64,000 nucleotides of DNA from an uncultured Chromatiales bacterium (GCA_964420295.1 CAYQST010000010.1:6554-70553), one strand, 5' to 3'. Positions 8,132-49,879 are shown, counted from the stretch's first letter. The notes: generated from the letters alone by a model not told the origin. Made by a program: numbers and translations.

Positions 8132-9718
8132 ATGAGTGAGGTCGTGACCATCGCCCTGCCCTGGGGCCATCGCGAAGAAGAGCTGCAAGCCGCGATCGAA
8201 ATCCGCCTCGGAGCCGGAGCCCCGTACCGCGTGCTCAAACGCAGTCTCGATGCCCGCAATCACCGCGCCATCACGGTTCTGTACTCCATCGAGCCCGAGG
8301 GCCTCGATCCCTGCGAAACCATCCTCGAGAACATCGCCCTCCGCAAATGCCGACTCGCATCCCTGTTCGGAGCCACGCCCCCCCGCGTGGTGATCGTGGG
8401 CGCGGGTCCTGCGGGACTGTTCTGCGCCTGGTGGCTGGTGCTGCACGGACTCCGCCCCATCCTGCTCGAACAGGGTCCCCCGATGCGTGAGCGCATCCGC
8501 GACATGGCCCGGTTCATGAAAACCGGCGACCTCCACCCCCTGTCCAACATCTGTTTCGGAGCCGGTGGCGCCGGGGCCTGGAGCGACGGCAAGCTCATCA
8601 CCCGCATCCGCTCTCCGTACATTCCCTTCGTGATGAAAACCTTCGTGGACCTCGGCGGTCCCGAAGACATCCGCTATCTCTACAATCCCCACCTCGGCTC
8701 CAATCGCATCCGTCGCTGCATCTCCACCATGCTCGATCGCCTGGAAGAGGAAGGAGTGTCTCTGCGCACCAATACCCAGTGGACGGGCCTGGGCGCGGCG
8801 GAAGAAGGTCGCATCGGAACCGTGTGCACCAGCGAGGGTCCCATCGAAAACGTGTCGGCCCTCTTCGTCGCCACGGGACATTCCTCCCGCCTGAGCTTTT
8901 CCCTTCTCCGCGAAGCGGGAGTGGACATGGAAGCCAAGGATTTCGCGGTGGGATTGAGGGTGGAACATCCCGCCGACACCATCAACCGCCTGATGTACGG
9001 AGAGGAATACCGGGAGCGCTATCCGGGTATCGAAACCGCCCAGTACAAATTCGCGCGCACCTGGAAGGAACCCTATCAGGGCGTGTACTCCTTCTGCATG
9101 TGTCCCGGCGGCTACATTTTGAACGCCAGCACGGGACCCGAAGGCGTGGTGACCAACGGCATGAGCAATGCCCTCAAATCGGGCCGCTTCTCCAACGCCG
9201 CCGTGGTGGCGACGGTGACTCGCGAGGATCTGGCAAAGCTCGGCTATCACGGGGTGGACGCCAGTCTCGCCTTTCAGCAGGATCTCGAGGAACGCTTTCG
9301 CGCCTCGGTCAACCGACCCGGCCAGGCTTCGGTGCTGCCCGGACAGAGACTCGCCGATTTCGTGCAGGGTCGCCCCTCGTCCTCCCTCGGTCCCGGTTCC
9401 TGCCTCAATCCCACCCTGCCCGCTTCCCTGCATCAGCTCTTCCCGCCCCATCTCTACGAAGGGCTTCGACGTGGACTGACGAGTCTCGGAGGATCTCTCC
9501 GTCGCTTCTGCGAATCACCGGAAGCCCAGGCGTTCGGTGTGGAAAGCCGCACCAGCTCACCCTATCGCCTGCCCCGCGACCCTGTCACCTTGCAGTCCCC
9601 GTCCCGTCCCCACCTCTATCCCATGGGCGAGGGAGCCGGACACGCGGGAGGGATTACCTCGGCGGCGGTGGATGGTATTCGCTGTGCACAGGCATGGATG
9701 GAAGGGAGTAAAGAGTAA
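8132..9718 (+). CDS. FAD-dependent oxidoreductase (uncharacterised FAD-dependent dehydrogenase type)
   Basis: VVIVGAGPAGL Rossmann motif, GAGGAGAWSDGKL, YSFCMCPGG, GEGAGHAGGITSAAVDG. Confidence 0.88.
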   Translation: MSEVVTIALPWGHREEELQAAIEIRLGAGAPYRVLKRSLDARNHRAITVLYSIEPEGLDPCETILENIALRKCRLASLFGATPPRVVIVGAGPAGLFCAWWLVLHGLRPILLEQGPPMRERIRDMARFMKTGDLHPLSNICFGAGGAGAWSDGKLITRIRSPYIPFVMKTFVDLGGPEDIRYLYNPHLGSNRIRRCISTMLDRLEEEGVSLRTNTQWTGLGAAEEGRIGTVCTSEGPIENVSALFVATGHSSRLSFSLLREAGVDMEAKDFAVGLRVEHPADTINRLMYGEEYRERYPGIETAQYKFARTWKEPYQGVYSFCMCPGGYILNASTGPEGVVTNGMSNALKSGRFSNAAVVATVTREDLAKLGYHGVDASLAFQQDLEERFRASVNRPGQASVLPGQRLADFVQGRPSSSLGPGSCLNPTLPASLHQLFPPHLYEGLRRGLTSLGGSLRRFCESPEAQAFGVESRTSSPYRLPRDPVTLQSPSRPHLYPMGEGAGHAGGITSAAVDGIRCAQAWMEGSKE

Positions 9719-9728
9719 AGAGTGAAGG
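9708..9728 (+). repeat. Heptamer array site A (3 units)
   Basis: GTAAAGA GTAAAGA GTGAAGG; contains the oxidoreductase TAA and runs into the next SD (AGGAGG). Confidence 0.8.
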
Positions 9729-9736
9729 AGGTTGCG

Positions 9737-11794
9737 ATGAGAACGTGGATATGGGTTTTGGTCTTGATGAGTCTGGCGGGGATGCCGATGCGGGCGCAGA
9801 CCGATTTGATGAAAAGGGCCCTGGATGTGTTGCAGCTGGATTCGGCCATGGTGGGGTATCATCCGAAACCCTCGTGGGACGCGGTGGATCGCTCCGATCC
9901 CTTTCGGCTTTCGGTGCATGACGGACTCCTGGCCCACCCCTTCGATCTTCCCACTCACGTTACCGATCTTCTTTTTCAGTACCGCACGGCCCTTACCGCC
10001 GACAGCGCCAATCTGCCCGGATATCGCTGGCCCCAGGTGAGGACTCTCGCTGCCCTTCTCGTGCATTCCGCCCGAAACCTCGGCCTGGACATCGGCAAGG
10101 TGGGTTTCGATTACACGCCTCGTGTGGATTCCACTGAACCCCTGGTGGCGGCTTGGAGGAATCTCTGCATCGCCGCCGGAGCGCAGACAGGGTCCACCAT
10201 CGTCTATCCCCTGCCCACCCAGCATTGGTCCGACGACGAATCCGCTCTGCGTGCCGCCGTGAAGGGTCTGCCCCGGGACTTCGCGCTCGCCCTGGCCGAG
10301 TTGGTGGAGGCCTGTCGCGAGGCCATCGGGTGGAGGCAGAACGCGTTGCGCGCCATTCCCCGGGATCGCTGGGATCACATCTATCGCTCGACGATTCTCG
10401 AACGGTCCCAGTGCGACGCCCACGCCTTCGATCAGGTGGTGTACGACGCCGCCCTGGCCTGCGACGGAGCCAGCATGAGCTATGGCGCCATCCTCCTGGC
10501 CCAGACGGTGGAAAAGGTCCTGCCCCGCCTCGCCGCCTTCGCGGGACGATCCCTGACCCTGGACCTGCCCACGCCCTACGGACGCATTGTCGTGGCGGGG
10601 GCGGAGGCCAACCTGCATGCCTATTCCGACGCCATGATCCTCATCGATCTGGGCGGGAACGATCGGTATCTGGGACCTACGGCCGCTTCGTCTCCCTCCC
10701 TGCCCCTGTCCCTGGTGCTCGATCTGGCCGGAGACGACAGCTATGAATGCGCGGCCCGCGACCTTCCCGCCCAGGGCGCCGGTGTGCTGGGCTACGGGAT
10801 GCTCGTGGATCTGGCGGGCGACGATCGCTACGGCACCGTGACCTTCGGGCAGGGCTGCGGGCGCTTCGGCGTGGGGGTGCTCGACGATCGCGAAGGCGAT
10901 GATCAGTACCGGGCCGAGGGTTTTGCCCAGGGTGCGGGGATGTACGGAATGGGACTTCTCGTCGACCGCCAGGGCGGAGATCGCTACGATCTGGTGTATT
11001 ACGGACAGGGCTATGGCTTTAGCCGCGGGCTGGGGCTTCTGGCCGATGTGCGGGGCGACGATCGCTACACGGCTGACGACGAAACCCTGACGCACGTGGG
11101 AGATGAAACGCCCGAGCACAACGAAAGCAACGCCCAGGGCTTCGGCTCGGGGCGGCGCGGGGATCACACCGACGGGCATAACATGTCCGGCGGCATCGGT
11201 ATTCTCACCGACCTCGACGGCAACGACCAATACTCCGCCGGTGTGTTCGCCCAGGGCAGCGGCTATTGGTTTGGCACCGGCATCCTCAACGACGAAAAGG
11301 GAGACGACCGGTACCGCGGGGTGTTCTTCAACCTGGGCGCGGCGGCCCATTTCGCCATCGGGGCCCTCATCGATCAGCGAGGAAACGACCAATCCGAGCT
11401 GGTACGCACTCTGGGATTCGGCGCGGCCCACGACGGATCGGCGGCCATCTATTTCGATCTGGAAGGGAATGACTCCTACACCATGACCCGGGGCGATGCC
11501 CGATCCGCCAGTCTTGGCGCGGCCCTCAACAGCTCCTTCGCGCTCTTCCTCAACCGGGGTGGAAACGACCGGTACGCGCCCATGGGCGTGAGCTTCGGAC
11601 ATGCTCAATCCCGGCGCGGCGGGGAATATGCCCGACTCGCACCCACGGTGGGACTCTTCTTCGACCTCGGGGGCGAAAACACCTATCCCTCGGGATTCGA
11701 GGCGAAGCCCGGCAAGGAATGGCAGTCGGTGCCCCGGGATCCCGCTCTGGGCATTCATGCCTACGGAATAGACGTCCCGTCCTCAAGCCGCTAG
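9737..11794 (+). CDS. Secreted protein with about 12 hxDxxGxDxY repeats
   Basis: SD AGGAGG; signal peptide MRTWIWVLVLMSLAGMPMRA; repeats LIDLGGNDRY, VLDLAGDDSY, LVDLAGDDRY etc. Confidence 0.8.
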   Translation: MRTWIWVLVLMSLAGMPMRAQTDLMKRALDVLQLDSAMVGYHPKPSWDAVDRSDPFRLSVHDGLLAHPFDLPTHVTDLLFQYRTALTADSANLPGYRWPQVRTLAALLVHSARNLGLDIGKVGFDYTPRVDSTEPLVAAWRNLCIAAGAQTGSTIVYPLPTQHWSDDESALRAAVKGLPRDFALALAELVEACREAIGWRQNALRAIPRDRWDHIYRSTILERSQCDAHAFDQVVYDAALACDGASMSYGAILLAQTVEKVLPRLAAFAGRSLTLDLPTPYGRIVVAGAEANLHAYSDAMILIDLGGNDRYLGPTAASSPSLPLSLVLDLAGDDSYECAARDLPAQGAGVLGYGMLVDLAGDDRYGTVTFGQGCGRFGVGVLDDREGDDQYRAEGFAQGAGMYGMGLLVDRQGGDRYDLVYYGQGYGFSRGLGLLADVRGDDRYTADDETLTHVGDETPEHNESNAQGFGSGRRGDHTDGHNMSGGIGILTDLDGNDQYSAGVFAQGSGYWFGTGILNDEKGDDRYRGVFFNLGAAAHFAIGALIDQRGNDQSELVRTLGFGAAHDGSAAIYFDLEGNDSYTMTRGDARSASLGAALNSSFALFLNRGGNDRYAPMGVSFGHAQSRRGGEYARLAPTVGLFFDLGGENTYPSGFEAKPGKEWQSVPRDPALGIHAYGIDVPSSSR

Positions 11795-11900: not shown

Positions 11901-13385
11901 ATGGCACAACAGCAATCCATTCTCGATAAAATCGTCTCCCTGGCCAAACGGCGCGGGTTCGTGTTTCAATCCTCCGAGATTTACGGGGGACTCAACGGCT
12001 GCTGGGACTACGGTCCTTTGGGCGTGGAACTGCTCCGCAACATCAAGGAAAGCTGGTGGAAGGCGATGACCTATCGCGACGATGTCGAGGGAGTGGACGC
12101 GTCCATTCTCATGCATCCCCGGGTATGGGAGGCCTCGGGACACGTGGAAAACTTTACCGATCCCATGGTGGACTGTCGCGAATGCAAGAGCCGGTATCGG
12201 TTGGACGTTCTCTACGAGGGCATGAACGAGAAGAGACGGAAGAAGATCGTGGAGGCCTGGCTCGAGACCTGCGAGCCGGCTCGTCGCGAGCAGCTTCGAG
12301 CTCTCAGTGCCGAAGAGATCCAGGAAGAGGCAGGCAATGCCCTGGTGGACGATGCCGTGGTCTTCGAAGCCCTGAACACGAAGGAGCTTCTCCCCTGTCC
12401 CAACTGCGGGCGGACGGCGACCTTTACCCTGCCGCGAAAATTCAACCTGATGTTCAAGACCTTCGTGGGTCCGGTGGAAGACAGCAGCGCCGTGGTGTAC
12501 CTCCGTCCCGAAACGGCCCAGGGCATCTTCGTCAACTTTCTCAACGTAGCCCAGGCCACGCGTCAGAAGGTCCCGTTCGGCATCGCCCAGATCGGCAAGG
12601 CTTTTCGCAACGAGATCAACACCAAGAATTTCCTCTTCCGCACCCGTGAATTCGAGCAGATGGAAATGCAGTTCTTCGTGCGTCCCGGCACGGACGACGA
12701 GTGGTACGAGGACTGGCGGCAGAGGCGGATGCAGTGGTTCGTGGAAAACGGCATGACGGCCTCCCGGCTCCGTTACCATCCGCACGCGCCCGAAAAGCTG
12801 GCGCACTACGCCAAGGCGGCGGTGGACATCGAATACCAGTTTCCCTTCGGCTGGGGAGAGATCGAAGGCATTCACAATCGCACGAACTTCGATTTGAGTC
12901 GGCACATGGAGTATTCCACCAAGAGCATGGAATACTTCGACGACGAAACGAAGGAGAAGTACGTCCCCTTTGTCATCGAGACCTCAGCCGGAGCCAGTCG
13001 CTCCTTCATGGCCTTTCTGGTGGATGCCTACGAAGAAGAAGTGTTGGAAAAGGAAACCCGCGTGGTGTTGCGCCTCCATCCCCGTCTTGCCCCCTTCAAG
13101 GCGGCCGTGCTTCCGCTGGTCAACCGCGACGGTATGGACGAGATCGGTGCGAAACTACATCGTGAATTGCAGCGCGACGTCAAGGTCTTTTACGACGACA
13201 GCGGCTCCATCGGTCGCCGGTATCGTCGTCAGGATGAAATCGGCACCCCCTGGTGCTTCACGATCGACTCCCAAACCCTCGAGGACGGCACCATCACCGT
13301 GCGCCATCGCGACGCGATGCACCAGGAGCGCATCGCCCTGGCCTCCTGCCGTCGCTTCCTCCTCGACGGCCTCGCCACGCCTTAA
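11901..13385 (+). CDS. glyQS: Glycine--tRNA ligase, homodimeric type
   Basis: KRRGFVFQSSEIYGG, YLRPETAQGIF, FRTREFEQME, IGRRYRRQDEIGTP. Confidence 0.97.
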   Translation: MAQQQSILDKIVSLAKRRGFVFQSSEIYGGLNGCWDYGPLGVELLRNIKESWWKAMTYRDDVEGVDASILMHPRVWEASGHVENFTDPMVDCRECKSRYRLDVLYEGMNEKRRKKIVEAWLETCEPARREQLRALSAEEIQEEAGNALVDDAVVFEALNTKELLPCPNCGRTATFTLPRKFNLMFKTFVGPVEDSSAVVYLRPETAQGIFVNFLNVAQATRQKVPFGIAQIGKAFRNEINTKNFLFRTREFEQMEMQFFVRPGTDDEWYEDWRQRRMQWFVENGMTASRLRYHPHAPEKLAHYAKAAVDIEYQFPFGWGEIEGIHNRTNFDLSRHMEYSTKSMEYFDDETKEKYVPFVIETSAGASRSFMAFLVDAYEEEVLEKETRVVLRLHPRLAPFKAAVLPLVNRDGMDEIGAKLHRELQRDVKVFYDDSGSIGRRYRRQDEIGTPWCFTIDSQTLEDGTITVRHRDAMHQERIALASCRRFLLDGLATP

Positions 13386-13407
13386 CCCTTTACTCTTTAC
13401 TCTTCAC
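13380..13407 (-). repeat. Heptamer array site B (4 units)
   Basis: Minus strand reads GTGAAGA GTAAAGA GTAAAGG GTTAAGG immediately after the stop of the 13408-13740 gene. Confidence 0.8.
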
Positions 13408-13792: not shown

Positions 13793-13889
13793 GAAAAGGG
13801 TGGAAGGGGGGGGGTGAATGCGTGAATGGGGGAATGCGTAAATGGCCGCGTTCTCTTCCTCTTAACCCTTCACTCTTTTCTCTCTTGAC
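13793..13889. repeat. Composite palindromic element, site C: purine arm, octamer core, inverse heptamer arm
   Basis: GAAAAGG GTGGAAGG, G9, GTGAATGC GTGAATGG GGGAATGC GTAAATGG, then TCTTAAC CCTTCAC TCTTTTC. Confidence 0.7.
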
Positions 13890-13995
13890 TTTTCTCCGGC
13901 TCTTTCCCAAGTTTCGGCATTGAATTTCCGACGTCATGAAAGTATCCCGCCATGGGATCAGTCCACTACCTTTCACCATTTCGCACGAGGCCATT

Positions 13996-14661
13996 ATGGG
14001 AACCTCTTGTCCCTGTTCTACCCCCCCCCCCCAGAATCCGCTGAGCGGATCGGGCTCCTTTGTTCATGACTGGAACGCGGCCCAGGCTCTGACGCCACGC
14101 AGTCCTCTCGATGTTCTTCTCTTCGCCCAACTCGGAGAAACCGTGGGCACCTTCGAACGCAGCACGATGTACGTCGCACCCGTTGGTGGTTGGGTCACCA
14201 ACAAAGAATCGGGTGAGCCGTTTTGGTATCTCGAAGCCGCACCGGTCTGTACGGCCTATGCCACCGAACAGGGAGAGAAGGTGGCCGATGCCGCCCAGTG
14301 GATGTTTGATCACAAGACCATGTACACCGGCTCAGTATCGGAACCGCGTGAACCCCAGGTCGCGCCACCCGCGACCCGCGTGTTGTATATGCGCGCAGGG
14401 TCGGAATGGAAGAATACCGTGGGAATTCGGTTTAGTGATAATCTTTCCAACGTCCAATTGACCTTCACGCGGAACCTGATGACCCGGGGAGACGAGCAGG
14501 GGACCTATCCGGTGCTTTCCTTTGGTTCCTATCTCCAGGAGACGACCAAGAACCTCATCCTGACCTTCTCGACTCCGGGCATCTACTCCTTTGCCCTGTG
14601 CGGACGGGATGGCAACGATGATTCCGTATGCCTGGAACTGGATATCTGGGCGGTATCATGA
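13996..14661 (+). CDS. Hypothetical protein, 221 aa, beta-rich, no signal peptide
   Basis: GAGG SD before ATG 13996; stop overlaps the next ATG. Confidence 0.7.
   Translation: MGTSCPCSTPPPQNPLSGSGSFVHDWNAAQALTPRSPLDVLLFAQLGETVGTFERSTMYVAPVGGWVTNKESGEPFWYLEAAPVCTAYATEQGEKVADAAQWMFDHKTMYTGSVSEPREPQVAPPATRVLYMRAGSEWKNTVGIRFSDNLSNVQLTFTRNLMTRGDEQGTYPVLSFGSYLQETTKNLILTFSTPGIYSFALCGRDGNDDSVCLELDIWAVS
14021..14032 (+). repeat. C12 homopolymer in codons 9-13
   Basis: TCTA-CCCCCCCCCCCC-AGAAT; longest homopolymer I noticed in the window. Confidence 0.9.
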
Positions 14662-16088
14662 AAACGAGAGATTTCAGGAACATGTCGGTCCCGGACGGGA
14701 TCGACATGTTCTCCACAGCCTTCGACGGTCCCTTTGGTTGGCCACAGAGCAACGCAGCGAGTATGGAACTCCGTCGATCCGATGAGAAGCAAGCAGCTCC
14801 ATGTATCTATTGCTCCGATCTCTTCGATGATTTGGATCTCGACGCACCTCTCCTCACGGCGAATTGCTATGGAGGACAGGGGCTGGGAATGTGGGTGGAT
14901 AGCTACAATTGGCCGGGAGGTGGTCGTCATTGGCAGGAGCTGAATACTGATGGCAAGAAGTATGATTATTTATTTACGCTTCGACTATTGGGTGTACGAA
15001 GCTATATTCTTGGCTCAGAAGATCCTGTTGAATTTCAGAGAATATCATTATTGTCTCGTCAACGAGATGCCAGTTTGCAACTCGGCGAGGTTATATCTGG
15101 ACGTTGGATTGATGGTAACTTAGGGTGGGATCCTATTCGTTTTTCGCCAGAGTCTGGAATAATAACTAGTTTCTATCATGATGAACCGCTAGATACAATG
15201 ATGAATGATGCAAAGGGTGGCGATGCAAACGCAGCGCACCATTGGGAAAGATATCATCCTCTGTTGGATACCTATCTGGCGAATCTCCTTCAATTCCTTT
15301 GTACAATCGATTTTCAAAGCAGCTTCGTCTTTTCCACCTACGACATACTCCTTGTGCAGGATTTTCTCAGTCGACTTCAAACTACTACAGTACCCTGTGG
15401 ACACAATGCGGGAAGATCTATGCTTGATCTTGTGCGAGATGGGACTATCCGAATATACCCGGATTTCTACAGCGAACAAGGGAAGAGGGAGTTCTATCGA
15501 CAACTTCAAGCCACTTATCATATGTATGGCATCCCTACGCAGTGGATCCGGCCTTTCATCAGCACGGGAGCTAACCTGTGCGAATACGAAGAAAAGCGGT
15601 TTGAAACCCAGCCGGTTTCCATCATATGTGAGACGATCTTCCACCAAACGATGGGGTTTGGAGCCCCATACCTGTATACCTCAGGAGGTTGGACCCAGGA
15701 AAAGTGGGACTCGTTGTTCTTTCTCTCCTGGATCCTTGGATGCATCGAACCGGATCGTGTTTCGGGAAGCGGACGCCAGGGTTGTTCCCTGACCCGCCCC
15801 ACCTCGCTTCGCGGCCTGCTTCGACTGCTATGCAATATGTTTCCCATCCAACCGACACGAACCCGGGAGGATGAGCGAATACGATTCCTGGAGTGTTTCT
15901 CGCTGTATAGGGATTATCCGCATCCGCCGGAGAATCCTCAAACCTGTCTTCCCTGTTGCGTAAATGCCGTCGGAGAATCGATCCCCATTGATACCGTCCA
16001 CTATCGAGCGCTTCGCGCGAATTGTGCGACACTTCCAAAATGCTGCAAAGATGTGAACTTGTGTAGAACCACCTCTCCCAATGCATGA
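14658..16088 (+). CDS. Hypothetical Cys-rich protein, 476 aa, AT-rich core
   Basis: Long ORF in AT-rich DNA with ATGA overlaps at both ends; PCIYCS, TCLPCCVN and PKCCKDVNLC clusters. Confidence 0.75.
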   Translation: MKTRDFRNMSVPDGIDMFSTAFDGPFGWPQSNAASMELRRSDEKQAAPCIYCSDLFDDLDLDAPLLTANCYGGQGLGMWVDSYNWPGGGRHWQELNTDGKKYDYLFTLRLLGVRSYILGSEDPVEFQRISLLSRQRDASLQLGEVISGRWIDGNLGWDPIRFSPESGIITSFYHDEPLDTMMNDAKGGDANAAHHWERYHPLLDTYLANLLQFLCTIDFQSSFVFSTYDILLVQDFLSRLQTTTVPCGHNAGRSMLDLVRDGTIRIYPDFYSEQGKREFYRQLQATYHMYGIPTQWIRPFISTGANLCEYEEKRFETQPVSIICETIFHQTMGFGAPYLYTSGGWTQEKWDSLFFLSWILGCIEPDRVSGSGRQGCSLTRPTSLRGLLRLLCNMFPIQPTRTREDERIRFLECFSLYRDYPHPPENPQTCLPCCVNAVGESIPIDTVHYRALRANCATLPKCCKDVNLCRTTSPNA

Positions 16089-18502
16089 GGCCACCAATGA
16101 AACCGACCCTGTGGATCACCATTCTCGTTGCCTTGGTGAGCGCGCCCCTGCCCTGCCAGGCCCAGTGGCGCTGGCTCTACCCTTCCCTGCGCGGAGAGTT
16201 TCGGTCCTGCGTCATGGCGAGCGCCGATCATGCCTACATCCTGACCGCCTCCGACAGCGTGCTGGAGACCAGGGATCAGGGGCGTACCTGGACCACGATG
16301 GAGGTGGACGGACTGCCTACTTTCGGCGTGTTCTTTCGCCCGTCCCTTGGATTCCTGGTGGTGCGGGACCGGGGTGCGGGGTCCAATCTCCTGCTATCCT
16401 GGCATATCCTGAAGACCTCGAACGGGGGACAGAGCTGGCATCGCCTGCCTCCCACCTTCGGGGATGTGGTGGATGTGTACTTCGGCACGGATTCCCTGGG
16501 CTGGGTGACCCTGCGCACGGGAGCGGGTATGCACACGACGGACGGAGGGCAAACATGGGAACCGAACGCGCCGGGGACCCCACCGATCATACGCTGGATG
16601 GATCGGAACACCTGGTATGGATACCGGCATTATTCCACTGAAGTCGGACGAAGGGACAGTGTGCTCTGGTACTCTTTCGATGGAGGCGCCACTTGGAAAA
16701 AAAGAACGTTTACCGCGTTTCCAAGAATAGGTACTGGCTATACACTGCAATCTGAGTGTCTGTCTCTTACACATACTTCCACGGGAACGTTTTTAGCTCT
16801 AAATCATGTATATGCACTTTCGCCTAGCATGCAGACCTTTTTTACATCATTCAGTATTGCCCGATCGAACGACTCAGGACGTACATGGAGTATGGAATAT
16901 AATCCCGTTGTCTTTCAGACAACGGGAAGTAGCCAACGGGCGGAAGGTCAGCATAACAGAGCGTTTCCATATCGATTTCTTTCCTTGGGAGATTCGGTCG
17001 TGGCGGTTGTTTCGGATATTGGAAGGAACTGGCTTCGATTCGTGAATGGGGCCCAAGCGTCCATCACTATCGATATCCTATTTGATGAATTCACAAATTG
17101 CGGCTACGATTCAGACCATGAGGGACGTGTGATCGCGGTTTCGTCTTCGCGAAAGCGCATACAATGGAGTACTGATGTCGGAAACACCTGGACGTGGCGA
17201 AATGACGAGGAGATGATCAACACAAGCATGGTCCGGGCACTCCTTTCTTTTCATTCCACGGGACTCGTGATCGGGTATGCTCCGTACTACGTGGCTCTCT
17301 CGAAGAATGGCTACCTGGTGTTCGATGGGGTGCAAAAGATTCACGATAGCACGAGTAGCATGCATATCGTCGAAGATGGGCCCTGTCAAACTCTTGATGA
17401 TCATCGCGCCCTGCTGGCAAATACAGGATCGAGCACATATCAGATGTTTGAGTTAACAGACAACAAGGAGTGGTTCCCGATCACTTCATACTTTAATAAG
17501 CCAACACCCGTCCAATCACCGCTCGGCACATCCTACTATCTTGGAGCTGGACGTGCCGTTATTGCCGCCGCGGATGGCGTGATTTATGCCCATGTGGAAG
17601 ATACCTGGGAATGGAAGAGAGTGGATTCCGTTATTGATTTCGCTGGATCTGAAGCGGCGAGTCAACGTATGAGATTTTTTTCTCGCGATGAAGGAGTCTG
17701 TGTTGACTATGAACAGGGCTCCTATCGGAGTAGAACGGGACTTGATAGCCTTGTGTATTTTCTTACCGTGAGAACGACCTCGGATGGAGGAAAGTCTTGG
17801 ACCAGAATACAAACTCCTCTTAAGCAGTTCATCCAACTCGTACAGCCATCACTTGCAAACAAATCCTCGCTCGGGATTCTGAATCGTCATTCCTATCTCA
17901 CCGGGAACCCCGATGGAATTCGCAAAACCACGGATTGGGGACATACATGGACCTTAGTTTGTCCCGCGACGGAAGGGATCTTTTCCATTAGCGCGGTGGA
18001 TTCGCTTCGCGCTTTTGCCACGACGGAGCACGAACTACTAGGTACGATTGATGGAGGACAAAGGTGGTCACGTATCACACCACGAGATGCATCGGGACGT
18101 GTTCTTAGTGCGGGAGTCTTTACGAAGGTCTTCACCACGCCCTCCGGCTTCGTGCTCGCCTGCCTGCCGGATGGCTTCATCGGAGGCATGGCGGATTCCA
18201 TCCTCACAGGGGTGGACCGTACGGAGCCCGTGTTCCCCACCGACCCGCTTCGCATCTACCCAAACCCCGGTGTTGCGGGTGGGACTGTCCGCATCCGGTT
18301 TACACAGCAGACAGCGGGGAGTGCCTCGATTACCCTGTACTCCTTGCTGGGCCAGCATCTGCATCACGAGATCCTCGACGACCGTCACGTAGGCCCCCGT
18401 GAGGTTACTCTGTGCACCGCCGGCCTCCCGCCCGGACTCTACTTTGTCGCGGTGTCCACGCCCGAAGGAGTGAGGGTGGGGAAGGTGGTGGTGGGAAGGT
18501 GA
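16085..18502 (+). CDS. Secreted BNR/Asp-box beta-propeller protein with T9SS C-terminal sorting domain
   Basis: Signal peptide; repeated (S/T)xDxGxTW motifs; C-terminal IYPNP...ITLYSLLGQ...LPPGLYFV...KVVV. Confidence 0.88.
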   Translation: MRPPMKPTLWITILVALVSAPLPCQAQWRWLYPSLRGEFRSCVMASADHAYILTASDSVLETRDQGRTWTTMEVDGLPTFGVFFRPSLGFLVVRDRGAGSNLLLSWHILKTSNGGQSWHRLPPTFGDVVDVYFGTDSLGWVTLRTGAGMHTTDGGQTWEPNAPGTPPIIRWMDRNTWYGYRHYSTEVGRRDSVLWYSFDGGATWKKRTFTAFPRIGTGYTLQSECLSLTHTSTGTFLALNHVYALSPSMQTFFTSFSIARSNDSGRTWSMEYNPVVFQTTGSSQRAEGQHNRAFPYRFLSLGDSVVAVVSDIGRNWLRFVNGAQASITIDILFDEFTNCGYDSDHEGRVIAVSSSRKRIQWSTDVGNTWTWRNDEEMINTSMVRALLSFHSTGLVIGYAPYYVALSKNGYLVFDGVQKIHDSTSSMHIVEDGPCQTLDDHRALLANTGSSTYQMFELTDNKEWFPITSYFNKPTPVQSPLGTSYYLGAGRAVIAAADGVIYAHVEDTWEWKRVDSVIDFAGSEAASQRMRFFSRDEGVCVDYEQGSYRSRTGLDSLVYFLTVRTTSDGGKSWTRIQTPLKQFIQLVQPSLANKSSLGILNRHSYLTGNPDGIRKTTDWGHTWTLVCPATEGIFSISAVDSLRAFATTEHELLGTIDGGQRWSRITPRDASGRVLSAGVFTKVFTTPSGFVLACLPDGFIGGMADSILTGVDRTEPVFPTDPLRIYPNPGVAGGTVRIRFTQQTAGSASITLYSLLGQHLHHEILDDRHVGPREVTLCTAGLPPGLYFVAVSTPEGVRVGKVVVGR

Positions 18503-18609
18503 AGTGTGAAGAGAAAAGAGTAAAGGCGTGTATACGTGAATAGGTGAATGAGTGAATACGATAATGGGTGAAGGAGCGCCCCCTTTACTCTTTCCCCTTT
18601 ACTCTTCCC
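18499..18609. repeat. Composite palindromic element, site D
   Basis: GTGAAGT GTGAAGA GAAAAGA GTAAAGG / GTGTATAC GTGAATAG GTGAATGA GTGAATAC GATAATGG GTGAAGG / CCTTTAC TCTTTCC CCTTTAC TCTTCCC; first unit holds the upstream TGA. Confidence 0.8.
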
Positions 18610-18675
18610 TCCTCTTGCCTTTTTCACTATCTCCATTTTTCCTACATTTCGCCTCTTTCATCACACAGGACCATC

Positions 18676-19506
18676 ATGACCACCATACGAATCCTCGCTC
18701 TGTGTCTCACTCTCATCGCGGGAACCACGTTCGCACAGAAACAGAAAGCGGCTCCCGCTCCCACCAAGGAATCCAAAGGAAAAACCACGATGATCATCAT
18801 GAAAACCGATCTGGGCGAAATGGAAATCGAACTCTGGAACGAAGTCGCGCCCAAGACCGTGGACAATTTCGTCGGCCTCGCCATGGGGACGAAGCAATGG
18901 AAGGACCCGAAATCCGGGGAAATGGTCACCCGCCCGTTCTACGACGGCTTGAAATTTCACCGCGTCATCAACGATTTCATGATTCAGGGTGGCTGCCCCA
19001 AGGGAGATGGAACCGGAGATCCCGGATATAAATTTGAGGACGAATGCTTCGATACGGGCAATGCCGCCGTCATCACCGGCAAGATTCCGGATGTGGCCAC
19101 GGCCATGCGGGTGTACGAGGAAATCCTGCTTCCCTATCTGCGCGCCACCCCCCAGCCGAGCAAGGACATCACGTCCATCCTCGAAAAATGTCAGGCCCAG
19201 AACAGCGCGGCTCCCCTGATGGAACAGCCGATCGAATTCTATACCAAGATCACGGGTCGCACCGAACCCTTCCGCAGTCAGGGCACCCTCAAGGCCAAGG
19301 TCGCCTACGGCACCATCTGCATGGCCAACTCGGGTCCCAATACCAACGGCTCCCAGTTCTTTATCGTGACGAAGAAGGAAGGCTGCGACTGGCTCGACGG
19401 CAAGCACACCGTGTTCGGCACCGTGGTCAAGGGCCTGGATGTGCTCCATGCCATCGAAAAGAAAGGCAATGGAGTAGGTATCGTCAGCGTGCGCGTCAAA
19501 AACTGA
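18676..19506 (+). CDS. Exported cyclophilin-type peptidyl-prolyl isomerase with an internal insertion
   Basis: Signal peptide; [44 protein letters not shown]. Confidence 0.93.
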
Positions 19507-46302: not shown

Positions 46303-47259
46303 ATGAAAAAAGCACTCATCACTGGAATCACGGGTCAGGACGGCAGCTATCTGGCGGAACTCCTTCTTGCGAAGGGCTATGAGGTTCATGGCATCGTTCG
46401 TCGCGTGGCGATCGAGGACCATGAACACCGGCTCGGTCGGATCAAGCATCTGCTCAGCGACATCCGCATCCATCCCGCTTCCCTGGAAAGCTACCCGAGT
46501 CTGTTCAACGTGGTGCGCGCCGTGGAGCCCGACGAATGCTACCACCTGGCGGCGCAGAGCTTCGTGAGTTATTCCTTCGAGGACGAGTTTTCCACCTTCA
46601 ACACCAACATCAATGGCACCCATTACATGCTGTCGTCGATCAAGCAGGTGGTACCCGACTGTCGGTTCTACTTCGCTGGTTCGAGCGAGATGTTCGGCAA
46701 GGTGGAGGAAGTCCCGCAGAACGAAAACACCCGCTTCCATCCTCGTTCCGCCTACGGTATCACCAAGGTGGCTGGCTACGAGCTGACGCGGAATTATCGC
46801 GAAGCCTACGGTTTGAAGACTGCCAACGGGATTCTGTACAATCACGAATCTCCCCGTCGCGGTTTCGAATTCGTCACCCGGAAGATTACCTCCACCGTTG
46901 CCCGGATCAAGAAAGGGCAGGCGAAGGAACTCCGACTGGGCAATCTCGATGCCAAGCGGGACTGGGGCTATGCGAAGGAGTATGTGGAGGCGATGTGGAT
47001 GATCCTTCAGCAGGAACAGCCTCAGGACTTTGTGATCAGCACCGGCGAGACCCACAGCGTGCGCGAATTCGTCGAAATCGCGTTTTCCAGCGTGGGCCTG
47101 AACTGGCAGGACCATGTCGTCGTCGATCCCATTCTCTTCCGCCCCGCCGAAGTGGATATCCTCCTCGGCAACCCCGCCAAGGCCGAACGAGAGCTCGGGT
47201 GGAAGTCCTCGACCTCGTTTCGGGAATTGGTGGAGTTGATGGTAATGAGTGAAGAGTAA
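46303..47259 (+). CDS. gmd: GDP-mannose 4,6-dehydratase
   Basis: ALITGITGQDGSYLAE, PRSAYGITK, NHESPRRG, LGNLDAKRDWG. Confidence 0.96.
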   Translation: MKKALITGITGQDGSYLAELLLAKGYEVHGIVRRVAIEDHEHRLGRIKHLLSDIRIHPASLESYPSLFNVVRAVEPDECYHLAAQSFVSYSFEDEFSTFNTNINGTHYMLSSIKQVVPDCRFYFAGSSEMFGKVEEVPQNENTRFHPRSAYGITKVAGYELTRNYREAYGLKTANGILYNHESPRRGFEFVTRKITSTVARIKKGQAKELRLGNLDAKRDWGYAKEYVEAMWMILQQEQPQDFVISTGETHSVREFVEIAFSSVGLNWQDHVVVDPILFRPAEVDILLGNPAKAERELGWKSSTSFRELVELMVMSEE

Positions 47260-47318
47260 AGAGTGAAGAGTAAAGAGTGAAGAGTAAAGAGTAAAGAGTA
47301 AAGAGTTAAGGGTAAAGT
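47249..47318 (+). repeat. Heptamer array site E (10 units)
   Basis: (GTGAAGA GTAAAGA)x3, GTAAAGA x2, GTTAAGG, GTAAAGT; the gmd TAA lies in unit 2. Confidence 0.92.
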
Positions 47319-47360: not shown

Positions 47361-48557
47361 ATGAACGTTCCTCTTCTTGATCTCAAGCCGCAGTATCAGG
47401 CCCTCAAGGCCGAACTGGATTCCGCTCTCCTTCGTGTTGCCGAGAGCCAGTACTTTATTTTGGGTCCCGAAGTCAAGCAGCTCGAGGCCAATATCGCCGA
47501 GTATGTCGGCACGAAGCATGCCATCGGCGTGTCCTCGGGCACCGATGCCCTTCTCCTTGCTCTGATGGCCCTGGGCATTGGGCCGGGTGACGGAGTGATC
47601 GTGCCCACCTTCTCCTTTTTCGCGACGGCCGGGGTGGTGTCGCGGCTGGGGGCGACTCCGATTTTCGTGGACAATGATCCGGTGACCTTCAACATCGATC
47701 CGAAGGCCGTGGAGGCCGCGCTGGAGTGTTACGCGCATTCCGACATCACGGTCAAGGCCATCACGCCCGTACATCTGTTCGGGCAGGCGGCAGACATGGA
47801 TGGCATCATGGCCATCGCCGCGCAGCACGGCCTGAAGGTGGTGGAAGACTGTGCCCAGGCCATCGGGGTGCAGTACAAGGACGGACGCCGCGTCGGGAGC
47901 ATCGGCGACGTGGGGTGTTTCTCTTTCTTCCCGAGCAAGAACCTCGGATGTTTCGGAGACGGTGGCATCATCACGGTGAACGACGACGCTCTGGCTCACA
48001 TGATCGAGATCATGCGGGTGCATGGCGGCGAGCCCAAGTACTACCACAAGGTGATCGGCGGCAATTTCCGCATCGATGCCATCCAGGCGGCGGTGCTGAA
48101 CGTGAAGCTACCTCATCTGGATAGTTGGCACGAGGGACGTCGGCGTAACGCGGCCTTCTATACCAAGCATTTCGTGGAAGCGGGACTTGCCGAAGGAACC
48201 GGAAGAACCGCGTTCGACGACAAGAATGCCGTGCTTCTGCCCGCCAGTGTGTACGAGGATCAGGGTCACGCCCATCCCTACCTGCACATCTACAACCAGT
48301 ACTGCATCCGCGTACAGGATCGGGACGGACTCATCGATCACTTGCGCGCCCATTCCATCGGATGCGAAATCTATTATCCGGTTCCCTTCCACAAGCAGGA
48401 ATGCTTCCAGGACGTGCCCTCGTCCCGCGGTACCTATCCGCAGGCGGACGCGGCAGCCGGGTCGATCCTCGCCCTGCCGATTTTTCCGGAATTGACGGAA
48501 GAGCAGTTGGGGTATGTGGTGGAGGTGGTAAGGATGGGGGTAAAGAGTAAAGTGTAA
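47361..48557 (+). CDS. DegT/DnrJ/EryC1/StrS aminotransferase (WbpE-like)
   Basis: VEDCAQAIG, FSFFPSKNLGCFGDGG (PLP lysine), GGNFRIDAIQAA. Confidence 0.93.
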   Translation: MNVPLLDLKPQYQALKAELDSALLRVAESQYFILGPEVKQLEANIAEYVGTKHAIGVSSGTDALLLALMALGIGPGDGVIVPTFSFFATAGVVSRLGATPIFVDNDPVTFNIDPKAVEAALECYAHSDITVKAITPVHLFGQAADMDGIMAIAAQHGLKVVEDCAQAIGVQYKDGRRVGSIGDVGCFSFFPSKNLGCFGDGGIITVNDDALAHMIEIMRVHGGEPKYYHKVIGGNFRIDAIQAAVLNVKLPHLDSWHEGRRRNAAFYTKHFVEAGLAEGTGRTAFDDKNAVLLPASVYEDQGHAHPYLHIYNQYCIRVQDRDGLIDHLRAHSIGCEIYYPVPFHKQECFQDVPSSRGTYPQADAAAGSILALPIFPELTEEQLGYVVEVVRMGVKSKV

Positions 48558-48574
48558 AGAGTAAAGCGTAAAGC
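48540..48574 (+). repeat. Heptamer array site F (5 units), left arm of the four-helix-bundle cassette
   Basis: GTAAAGA GTAAAGT GTAAAGA GTAAAGC GTAAAGC; encodes the last residues and the stop of the aminotransferase. Confidence 0.9.
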
Positions 48575-48590
48575 AACGGGGGAGGTTGCA

Positions 48591-48962
48591 ATGGAAATCA
48601 AATTTCGACGATCTCATACGAAGCTGTTGGTTTGGAAAAGGGCGATCGAGCTCGTTGTTCTGGTATATCGTACGACGGAGCACTTTCCTCGTAGCGAAAG
48701 CCTTGGTCTTGTTACGCAGATGCGGCGAGCCGCCGTGTCCATCCCAAGCAATATTGCCGAAGGTGCTGGTCGCGGCTCCACAAAGGAGTTTCTTCGACAC
48801 CTCCGCATCGCACGGGGATCCCTCAGTGAGCTGGAGACCCAGATGTTCATTGCCCAAGAACTCACGCTCTGCATCCAACCCGAAATCACTCTCTCGCTCT
48901 GTCACCAAGTATCACGACTCCTGAGCGGCCTCATCAATCGTCTCAATCGAGCAGATCCCTAA
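48591..48962 (+). CDS. Four helix bundle protein (23S rRNA intervening-sequence protein family)
   Basis: LLVWKRAIEL, FPRSESLGLVTQMRRAAVSIPSNIAEGAGR, FLRHLRIARGSLSELETQ. Confidence 0.95.
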   Translation: MEIKFRRSHTKLLVWKRAIELVVLVYRTTEHFPRSESLGLVTQMRRAAVSIPSNIAEGAGRGSTKEFLRHLRIARGSLSELETQMFIAQELTLCIQPEITLSLCHQVSRLLSGLINRLNRADP

Positions 48963-48991
48963 CCCTTCACCCTTCACCCTTCACTCTTTAC
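48957..48991 (-). repeat. Inverse heptamer array (5 units), right arm of the cassette
   Basis: Plus strand CCCTAAC CCTTCAC CCTTCAC CCTTCAC TCTTTAC, starting across the four-helix-bundle stop. Confidence 0.9.
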
Positions 48992-48995
48992 CATC

Positions 48996-49862
48996 TTGAA
49001 AGGCCTCATCCTTGCCGGGGGCTCCGGCACCCGGCTCTATCCGTTGACGCGGGTGGTGAGCAAGCAGCTCCTTCCCGTGTACGACAAGCCGATGATCTAC
49101 TATCCCCTCACCACGCTGATGCTGGCGGGGATTCGGGAGATCTGCATCATTTCCACGCCCACGGACCTGCCACGATTTCGGGATCTGCTCGAAGATGGAT
49201 CCCGGTTCGGGGTGTCGTTTACGTATGTGGTGCAGGAGAGTCCCGACGGACTAGCTCAGGCCTTCATCCTCGGAGAGGAATTCATCGGGGGAGAGCCGAG
49301 CTGTCTGATTCTGGGGGACAATCTCTTTCATGGGTCACACCTGGCGCGCACCCTGCAGGAGGCCTCGCAGTTGACGGAGGGGGGCTGCATCTTCGCCTAT
49401 CAGGTGAGGGATCCCGAACGGTATGGCGTGGTGGAGTTCGATGCCGGCGGACGGGCGGTTTCCATTGAAGAAAAGCCCACGCGGCCCCGATCGACCTTTG
49501 CCGTGCCGGGCATCTACTTCTATGATGGCACGGCGTCGGCGCGGGCCCGCGCCCTTCGACCCTCGGCGAGAGGAGAGCTGGAAATCACCGATCTGAATCG
49601 GGTCTATCTCGAGGAAGGGCATCTGCAGGTGAAGATTCTCAGCCGGGGCACGGCCTGGCTCGACACGGGCACCCACGAATCCCTGCTTCAGGCCTCGCAG
49701 TTCATCCAGACGATTGAATTACGTCAGGGACTCAAGATTGGCTGTCCCGAGGAGGTGGCGTATCGGATGGGATTCATCGATCGGGAAACCCTGAGAAAGG
49801 CCGGGGAAGAGATGAGAAAGAACGAGTATGGGCTGTATTTGTTGGAAGTGAGTGAAGAGTAA
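48996..49862 (+). CDS. rfbA: Glucose-1-phosphate thymidylyltransferase
   Basis: [35 protein letters not shown]; TTG start. Confidence 0.96.
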
Positions 49863-49879
49863 AGGGTGAAGAGTGAAGG
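49852..49879 (+). repeat. Heptamer array site G (4 units)
   Basis: GTGAAGA GTAAAGG GTGAAGA GTGAAGG; holds the rfbA TAA and ends in the rfbC SD. Confidence 0.88.

Follow-up and report, generated by a model that had tools for sequence, protein, structure and literature searches.

What are the two repeat-built palindromes that stand at either end of a low-GC, three-gene operon in the 64,000-nucleotide stretch analysed here (the window, C10:6554-70553 of the 3.37-Mb, 33-contig genome of an Ignavibacteria-type bacterium)? Element 1 (13793-13889) and element 2 (18499-18609) are assembled from tandem purine-rich heptamers, their pyrimidine-rich inverse, and octamers of the type GTGAATNN. The initial annotation, made from the window alone, took them for non-autonomous or emptied derivatives of a four-helix-bundle gene cassette that might bound an acquired island. 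A plainer reading replaces both the decayed mobile cassette and the foreign island: from sequence comparison, and with moderate confidence, we regard the two elements as probably the junctions at the upstream and downstream ends of a single copy of a home-grown operon for secreted proteins, itself present in several copies.

This reading is carried by the homology of the whole block to other loci of the same genome. By blastn, positions 13814-18623 align in one piece with C23:4937-129 (77.5% identity over 4872 nt). The alignment thus enters within element 1 and leaves within element 2, which makes the two elements the limits of a paralogous unit; the earlier idea that they bound a recombining or duplicated segment holds in this form. 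The unit is present in at least six full copies of ~4.4-4.8 kb each, with a GC content of 53-56% compared with 58.7% for the genome. Other copies match piecewise in the same search (gene 1, 83-91% to C6 and C7; gene 3, 90% and 80% over different parts to C21), which indicates mosaicism, and the mosaic homology of the window unit extends over C6, C7, C21 and C24. At least eight paralogues of gene 1 have 79-93% identity; for gene 2 a single paralogue reaches 72% and several others ~24%, and gene 3 has four to five at 59-69%.

Both composite palindromes stand far above chance. A pattern of three octamers (≤3 mismatches) matches seven times in the window, always inside the two elements, against 0.05 in shuffled sequence, and the corresponding pattern of three heptamers matches 28 times against 0.04 expected. 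Both elements are predicted to fold strongly as plus-strand RNA (element 1, -43.5 kcal/mol, z = -3.7; element 2, -41.9 kcal/mol, z = -5.25), and the block between them has, as first described, the lowest GC of the window (0.486-0.559 per 1-kb bin, ~0.6 elsewhere). The common layout originally ascribed to the pair, a purine arm, an octamer core and an inverse arm, stands for element 2 and in part for element 1. Element 2 is clean, with four plus four heptamers around five octamers and arms of 26 nt that are 85% complementary. In element 1 the pyrimidine arm is good, and the purine arm is degenerate, consisting of about two imperfect units and a G9 run, which correspond in paralogous junctions to the last two units of the family purine arm; its arms span 15 nt and are 80% complementary. 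The loops of both elements hold 55-58 nt of octamers, with no open reading frame (ORF) and no PF05635 gene between the arms, and a search of Rfam at the elements returned sub-threshold look-alikes of microRNA precursors alone, reflecting a generic hairpin.

Comparison of the copies shows how such a junction is put together. Twelve genes of the family that encode cargo of the type IX secretion system (T9SS) end in ...VSTPEGVRVGKVVVGR*, and in 12/12 the stop codon lies within the first repeat unit; in gene 3 the TGA (18500-18502) sits within the first heptamer of element 2. The layout beyond the stop varies. In the junctions of C8, C21 and C24, five octamers precede a hairpin in which a 9-nt GC loop separates four purine from four pyrimidine heptamers (O5-A4-A4), the C23 junction is the same with three octamers, and those at C7:115053 and C21:22172 are the hairpin only (A4-A4). 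The junction at C6:86369 has four heptamers, 13 octamers and six heptamers (A4-O13-A6), and that at C7:119923 has five heptamers and three octamers (A5-O3). Octamer numbers in paralogous junctions are 0, 3, 4, 5, 13 and >20, and the heptamer arms stay at 4 units. In 7/9 family junctions with both repeat types the octamers lie outside the hairpin, the loop of which is 9 nt. The A4-O4-A4 layout of element 2 (heptamers, octamers, pyrimidine arm) occurs once among the twelve T9SS tails, and octamers inside a hairpin closed by a pyrimidine arm are found in this window only.

Directly 3' of the pyrimidine arm, 11 copies carry the conserved sequence CTCTTGACTTTTCTCCGGCTGTTTTCCAAGTTTCGGCATTG, which contains TTGACT, 17 nt and CAAGTT. 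After it comes the gene 1 leader or, in the case of C21 and C24, a gene 3-like gene immediately. As the only sequence common to the upstream side of all copies, this module would be the natural place for a promoter. The upstream ATG at 13936, within the leader, reads ATA in several gene 1 paralogues. Measured against the family, element 1 is a junction that lacks the tail of the upstream gene and the initial half of its purine arm, and element 2 one that lacks everything beyond CCTCTTGCC. The hairpin at C8:4381-4477, between two convergent T9SS genes, has no promoter module. On a contig from another sample (L118), from a related organism with a gene 1 of 80% amino-acid identity and a C10 tract, six pyrimidine heptamers abut CCTTGACTTT...TAAAGTT; the array-plus-promoter arrangement therefore predates the expansion in this genome. 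We note a second T9SS-tail subfamily (...MGKVVVR*; C14:137-376, C18:59847-60086, C19:60144-60383 and C23:50737), after which ATTGGAR and ATTTSCG arrays take the place of the GTRAAGR/GTGAATNN set.

Taken together, a complete junction comprises four parts: the stop codon of an upstream T9SS cargo gene in the first repeat unit; a GTGAATNN octamer tract of 0 to >20 units, whose length, given how widely it varies between copies, probably changes by slippage; a hairpin in which a short GC loop joins four purine heptamers (GTRAAGR) to four pyrimidine ones; and, abutting the hairpin, the promoter-like TTGACT-N17-CAAGTT with a leader for the next operon. The 26-28-bp hairpin would form a 3'-end structure in the upstream transcript, whether as terminator, RNase III substrate or mRNA stabiliser, and would insulate the upstream gene from the next promoter, with the octamer tract as a hypervariable spacer of modulating role at most. 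Our best guess is that the hairpin acts as an RNA 3'-end structure, with the promoter for the following operon in the adjoining box. The predicted stems are of sufficient length for RNase III (at least ~20 bp), the genome carries rnc, which encodes that enzyme, and cleavage may follow. The window elements would be variants with octamers between the arms, and the block that they enclose would be one period cut from a junction-operon-junction series and placed, by recombination within repeats, between the small gene adjacent to glyS and the cyclophilin gene (start at 18676, downstream of element 2). The missing gene tail and half purine arm of element 1, and the missing promoter beyond the -35 box in element 2, are as expected from an excised period. 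The features are listed in Table 1.

Table 1. Features of the two elements and of the operon between them, in window coordinates.
Feature	Position	Strand	Sequence or remark
Element 1, degenerate purine arm	13793..13813	+	GAAAAGG GTGGAAGG running into G9 tract
Element 1, octamer array x4	13814..13845	+	GTGAATGC GTGAATGG GGGAATGC GTAAATGG; homology to C23 copy begins
Element 1, GC loop CCGCGT and pyrimidine heptamer arm	13846..13884	+	TCTCTTC CTCTTAA CCCTTCA CTCTTTT CTCTC
Promoter-like module TTGACT-N17-CAAGTT	13885..13913	+	sequence conservation; 11 copies
Leader between promoter-like module and conserved ATG of gene 1	13914..13995	+	conserved in paralogues
Gene 1, 221 aa from conserved ATG	13996..14661	+	orphan beta-sandwich protein; C12 tract 14021-14032
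Gene 2, 486 aa	14628..16088	+	orphan, no family match
Gene 3, 805 aa	16085..18502	+	BNR/sortilin-type repeats and T9SS C-terminal sorting domain
Element 2, purine arm, four heptamers	18499..18526	+	GTGAAGT GTGAAGA GAAAAGA GTAAAGG
Element 2, octamers	18528..18575	+	GTGTATAC GTGAATAG GTGAATGA GTGAATAC GATAATGG and one GTGAAGGA unit
Element 2, GC loop GCGCCC and pyrimidine arm, four heptamers	18576..18609	+	CCTTTAC TCTTTCC CCTTTAC TCTTCCC
Start remnant of promoter module	18610..18623	+	TCCTCTTGCC, family CCTCTTGAC; paralogue homology ends

Several observations weigh against this account. Solitary arrays make up 74/111 of the genome's heptamer arrays and are unable to form local hairpins. At the elements, simple scans found neither a sigma-70 promoter match nor a canonical terminator, a T run being absent; the terminator scan returned a 5-bp inner stem at 18566-18581 alone, with counts not above shuffles. 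The arms are no more complementary to their own partner than to arms of other loci (0.81 and 0.83; permutation p = 0.95), so there is no locus-specific compensatory signal for pairing. The many hairpin copies are paralogues of one module, and their shared layout may reflect descent and not selection. Finally, inspection of 13793/18623 found no target-site duplication, and no empty site was seen.

The two elements belong to a superfamily of repeats that pervades the genome. A whole-genome scan found 262 arrays of five unit types, namely the heptamers GTRAAGN (family A, 111 arrays), ATTTSCG (family B, 55), ATTGGAR (family C, 28) and CAATGAW (family D, 18) and the octamer GTGAATNN (family O, 50); a reversed-pattern control for the heptamer gave 0 matches. 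Intergenic positions account for 88/111 heptamer (A) and 46/50 octamer arrays in a genome that is ~88% coding by a crude gene caller, and several arrays that this caller placed inside genes reflect over-long ORF calls. Arrays are about twice as frequent close to the 3' ends of genes as close to their 5' ends and are rarest between divergent genes, and a downstream array follows 20/81 T9SS cargo genes compared with 131/2313 genes (odds ratio 6.3, p = 7e-9). Exactly four units are present in 56/111 arrays of family A, 34/55 of B and 9/18 of D, whereas octamer arrays spread broadly from 3 to 16 units. Where two arrays of family A lie inverted within 100 nt of each other, the purine array always precedes the pyrimidine array (13:0), and the arm order of family B pairs is fixed too (10:0; 23:0 for A and B together). 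Contig ends fall within 500 nt of an array in 20/66 cases, compared with ~2.5 expected; the repeats and the multicopy operon set a limit to the assembly, and the real copy numbers may exceed those counted here.

The possibility raised at the outset that one repeat family is nested in another is borne out well beyond the two elements. Heptamer and octamer arrays interleave in many orders, and families B, C and D form nested composites in the fixed order C-D-B ... B'-D'-C', which makes nesting a general habit of this genome. Such C-D-B composites (C27:1200-4300, C4:100-9300, C7:62300-62800 and 78880-79620, C9:5420-5545 and C12:13040-13470) surround short repeated inserts, partly in gene-poor stretches, and some are then followed by the same CTCTTGACTTT box.

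Arrays as brackets on the scale of genes were tried and rejected: at distances of 1-6 kb, one pair has the purine-then-pyrimidine order and six have the opposite order, so the 9708/13387 pair of the window is probably coincidental. Its members are a purine array (9708-9728) that spans the 9718/9722 junction and a three-unit pyrimidine array (13387-13407) directly after the glyS stop codon. Elsewhere in the window, a sugar-nucleotide operon has a heptamer array at every cistron junction (47242-47318, 48540-48574, 48964-48991 and 49852-49879). These arrays provide the last codons and stop of the upstream genes (gmd ...MSEE*, rmlA ...VSEE*, aminotransferase ...GVKSKV*) and finish in GAAGGAGG just 5' of the next start. 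An array of three units on the purine strand contains a stop in all three frames.

The proposal that the block is an acquired island finds no support in its distribution. Distant homologues of gene 1 (30-41% identity, 1-3 copies each) occur in 12/29 genomes of the same order; together with the six or more paralogous copies, they make the operon a locally expanded family and not evidently a foreign island. A scan of a genome collection with gene 1 returned no match beyond this genome, a large protein search found this genome's own copies and one Logan contig only, and a metagenome scan found relatives at 29-34% identity only, with no arrays upstream in the three loci checked. Gene 1 has no sequence match in Pfam, NCBIfam or the PDB, and its AlphaFold model, of moderate confidence (predicted local distance difference test, pLDDT, 68), is a beta-sandwich that finds generic Ig-like folds alone (template-modelling score, TM, ~0.25).

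The slot between glyS and the cyclophilin gene, for which the initial annotation had proposed a synteny check, is seen to vary in one distant relative. A scan of the genome collection with glycyl-tRNA synthetase (GlyRS) found distant Ignavibacteria and Melioribacter relatives only, and the comparison covers genome G014 alone, the sole genome of the same family being too fragmented. G014 is the only one in which glyS, the small minus-strand gene (37% identical) and the cyclophilin gene are kept together. Its slot holds three unrelated genes, for a 5'-nucleotidase with a T9SS tail, an ATP-binding cassette (ABC) ATPase and a UPF0014 protein. The ATPase and the UPF0014 protein are absent from the present genome, in which the 5'-nucleotidase has a distant match elsewhere. 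The comparison thus shows a variable slot, although the two genomes are far apart in evolution. After the glyS stop, G014 has GGAAAGG x2.7 and CATTCAT x3.7 (L096 5961-6009), and the window has CCTTTACTCTTTACTCTTCAC, so that the array position is kept, with different units, in a relative with 78% GlyRS identity.

Among the 30 genomes of the order, GTRAAGR arrays are patchy, with 12 that have them and 18 that have none; matches number 329 in G012, 208 in G003, 118 in this genome, 115 in G014 and 89 in G017. The GTGAATNN arrays are found in this genome only (83 matches, compared with 0 in the 29 others). Most closely akin to the octamer is a heptamer, TGAATGA/TGAAGGA, which is present in G014, G023 and G020 and absent here; from this kinship the octamer looks to be a local variant, one base longer, of the same superfamily. 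In G012 (L105, G012:C1:4672000-4686000), a 932-aa ORF is immediately followed by inverted 9-nt arrays, GATCACAGA / TCTCTGTGT (11431-11492), and the next gene by an array of 8-nt units, GTAAAAAG x4.4 (12499-12533); repeat structures after stop codons are thus an order-wide trait in which the unit length varies.

Four other explanations of the junctions deserve to be weighed, and the one that survives best is a phase-variable switch, in which slippage in the poly-C tract of gene 1, and in the octamers ahead of the promoter, would tune or switch each T9SS operon, in the way that repeats in promoters and leaders act on surface proteins of other bacteria. It draws on the variation of octamer number at constant arm length, on the secreted or surface nature of the products, and on the hmw adhesins of Haemophilus influenzae, whose level is set by heptamer number through an RNase III-cut hairpin (PMC12721329). 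It also draws on the poly-C tract itself, which occupies codons 9-13 of gene 1 (14021-14032) and has counterparts at C6:81808, C7:115261, C23:4754, C5:162925 and C14:32776. Twelve cytosines (C12) keep three copies in frame for the 221-aa ORF; the tract has ten cytosines in the copy on C23 and fourteen in that on C5, each of which then stops after 23-24 codons, it is interrupted in the copy on contig C14, and two contigs end within it. These length differences fit slipped-strand on/off switching and are not proof of it, as differences between paralogues are not equal to switching. Moreover, the octamers lie upstream of the hairpin and of the -35 box, and not between promoter elements or in a leader, and octamer arrays also follow genes with a convergent neighbour, where there is no promoter to tune. 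As an explanation of the junctions as a whole, we consider the switch unlikely.

Neutrality is the next alternative: the arrays would be by-products of a tendency of the lineage to spread 7-9-nt tandem repeats, and their role would be limited to that of sites for unequal recombination. The five unit families of this genome, the other 7-, 8- and 9-nt arrays that follow stop codons in relatives, the patchy occurrence of any one unit in the order, the lack of a compensatory signal in the arms and the excess of contig ends at arrays are all consistent with such a tendency. What it leaves unexplained is the regularity of the system, that is, the sharp preference of three heptamer families for exactly four units while octamer numbers spread, the strictly fixed arm order, the depletion between divergent genes with enrichment at 3' ends and after T9SS genes, and the array kept, albeit with other units, at the glyS stop of G014. 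We therefore find pure neutrality quite unlikely.

It is distinctly unlikely that the junctions are recombination sites of an integrase-free cassette system, from which T9SS operons would loop out and re-enter at arrays of the same family. This scheme would explain the layout at both ends, the six or more copies and their mosaic structure. If true, the octamer and poly-C tracts would set the on/off state or level of each copy, and the exchange of operons would shuffle a phase-variable repertoire of secreted proteins.

The original proposal, that the elements are four-helix-bundle (PF05635) cassettes from which the gene was lost and in which the octamer array grew, is very improbable. A true cassette does exist in the window at 48540-48991, where a PF05635 gene (48591-48962, E = 3.6e-33) is wedged between the aminotransferase gene and rmlA with arms of (GTAAAGA)5 and (CCCTTCA)4. 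Its heptamer family and its purine-then-pyrimidine order are those of the elements, as is an arm length of ~28 nt, which also recurs in the stems of intervening sequences (PMC4990558); the cassette arms and the junction arms therefore draw on the same repeat pool. In G014, a four-helix-bundle-like ORF just upstream of glyS has arms of TGAATGA heptamers, the unit most akin to the octamer, and cassettes of relatives can carry 8-nt units in an arm. However, the genome has 111 such arrays and three PF05635 genes only (C10:55174, C2:6076 and C2:13809), one of them with arms of this kind; those at C2:6076-6378 and C2:13809-14108 are enclosed by CAATGAW arrays. In the relatives, whose closest four-helix-bundle homologues are 47-53% identical, the arms differ again: GTTAAAC in G012 despite its 329 GTRAAGR matches, GGGAAGA in G014, AGTTAAGG in G018 and CGTAAAGG/CTTCACC in G008. 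Across 30 genomes, arrays and close four-helix-bundle homologues do not track each other, so that the coupling is weak. Within the family, moreover, the octamers mostly lie outside a hairpin whose loop is short, and the elements, which leave no room for a gene, are homologous to junctions with a promoter-like module and a gene tail and not to a cassette.

Several established classes of mobile or regulatory palindrome were also considered. REP/REPIN elements with a RAYT transposase were rejected, as the genome has two weak partial PF01797 matches only, neither of them near an array (C4:121.5 kb, 23.1 bits; C5:75.5 kb, 17.8 bits). A miniature inverted-repeat transposable element (MITE) does not fit, as no target-site duplication was seen at either end and the copies differ in unit number and order. 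The form of an intrinsic terminator, a GC-rich stem directly before a T run, was not found by the scan of the elements.

The value of the locus lies less in the two elements than in the repeats that run through the whole genome and in their tie to T9SS operons. The hairpin-plus-promoter junctions, built from repeats, are linked with T9SS-secreted proteins with poly-C tracts, and the system lends itself to studying what short tandem repeats do to operon boundaries, to the growth of gene families and possibly to phase variation, beyond the well-studied pathogens.

Among known repeats, the cyanobacterial STRR heptamers are of the same class of dispersed intergenic heptamer repeats. Correia elements of Neisseria and the REP/BIME sequences of enterobacteria are small dispersed intergenic palindromes that can end transcription, serve as RNase III substrates, stabilise the upstream mRNA or provide outward promoters, and by analogy the junctions may function in a similar way. 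Correia and REP sequences are unique-sequence inverted repeats, Correia elements with target duplications and REPs with a cognate RAYT transposase, whereas the arms here are tandem repeats, no duplication was seen at the elements, and matches to Y1-type transposases are weak and far from arrays.

In the hmw leader of H. influenzae, a heptamer-repeat hairpin is processed by RNase III, and the number of repeats sets expression (PMC12721329). There, as here, a pyrimidine-rich 7-nt repeat pairs with a purine-rich arm beside a surface-protein operon. However, the hmw repeat is part of the 5' leader and follows the promoter, whereas the hairpin described here is upstream of the promoter-like box and would therefore belong to the 3' end of the preceding transcript. 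In the intervening sequence of Coxiella, RNase III cuts a 28-bp stem that contains heptamers (Warrier et al. 2016, PMC4990558). The junctions share with that sequence, and with PF05635 cassettes, a heptamer stem of ~28 bp in transcribed DNA (the arms of element 1 are 15 nt only) and a variable repeat number, which in Coxiella differs between strains. Unlike these cassettes, they have no gene in the loop and a promoter-like module on one side, and the arrays far outnumber the four-helix-bundle genes of the genome.

The closest likeness is to the intergenic heptamers GGGNATC and GGGGAYT of Xanthomonas and Nostoc, which prefer four units and lie near stop codons (Rehm et al. 2015, PMC4692102). 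Both systems consist of tandem 7-nt units spread genome-wide, with a strong non-coding bias and a four-unit preference (about half of the family A arrays here); in both, arrays are concentrated just 3' of stop codons and depleted where genes diverge, inverted pairs occur with solitary arrays, and the same gene slots are used in relatives with varying sequence. The four-unit preference of the GGGNATC-type repeats has been attributed to G-quadruplex formation (PMC4692102). The units of the present genome (GTRAAGR, ATTTSCG, ATTGGAR and CAATGAW) are without G tracts, and GTGAAGA, GTAAAGA and GTGAAGG have no run of three G, so that this explanation cannot apply to them. The genome is thus a clear counter-example to the G-quadruplex idea: three G-tract-free families share the preference, the cause of which may therefore be a common one, for example a favoured arm length of ~28 nt. 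Beyond what is described in Xanthomonas and Nostoc, the present system has an 8-nt variant family, and its arrays are built into the promoter-bearing junctions of a multicopy operon.

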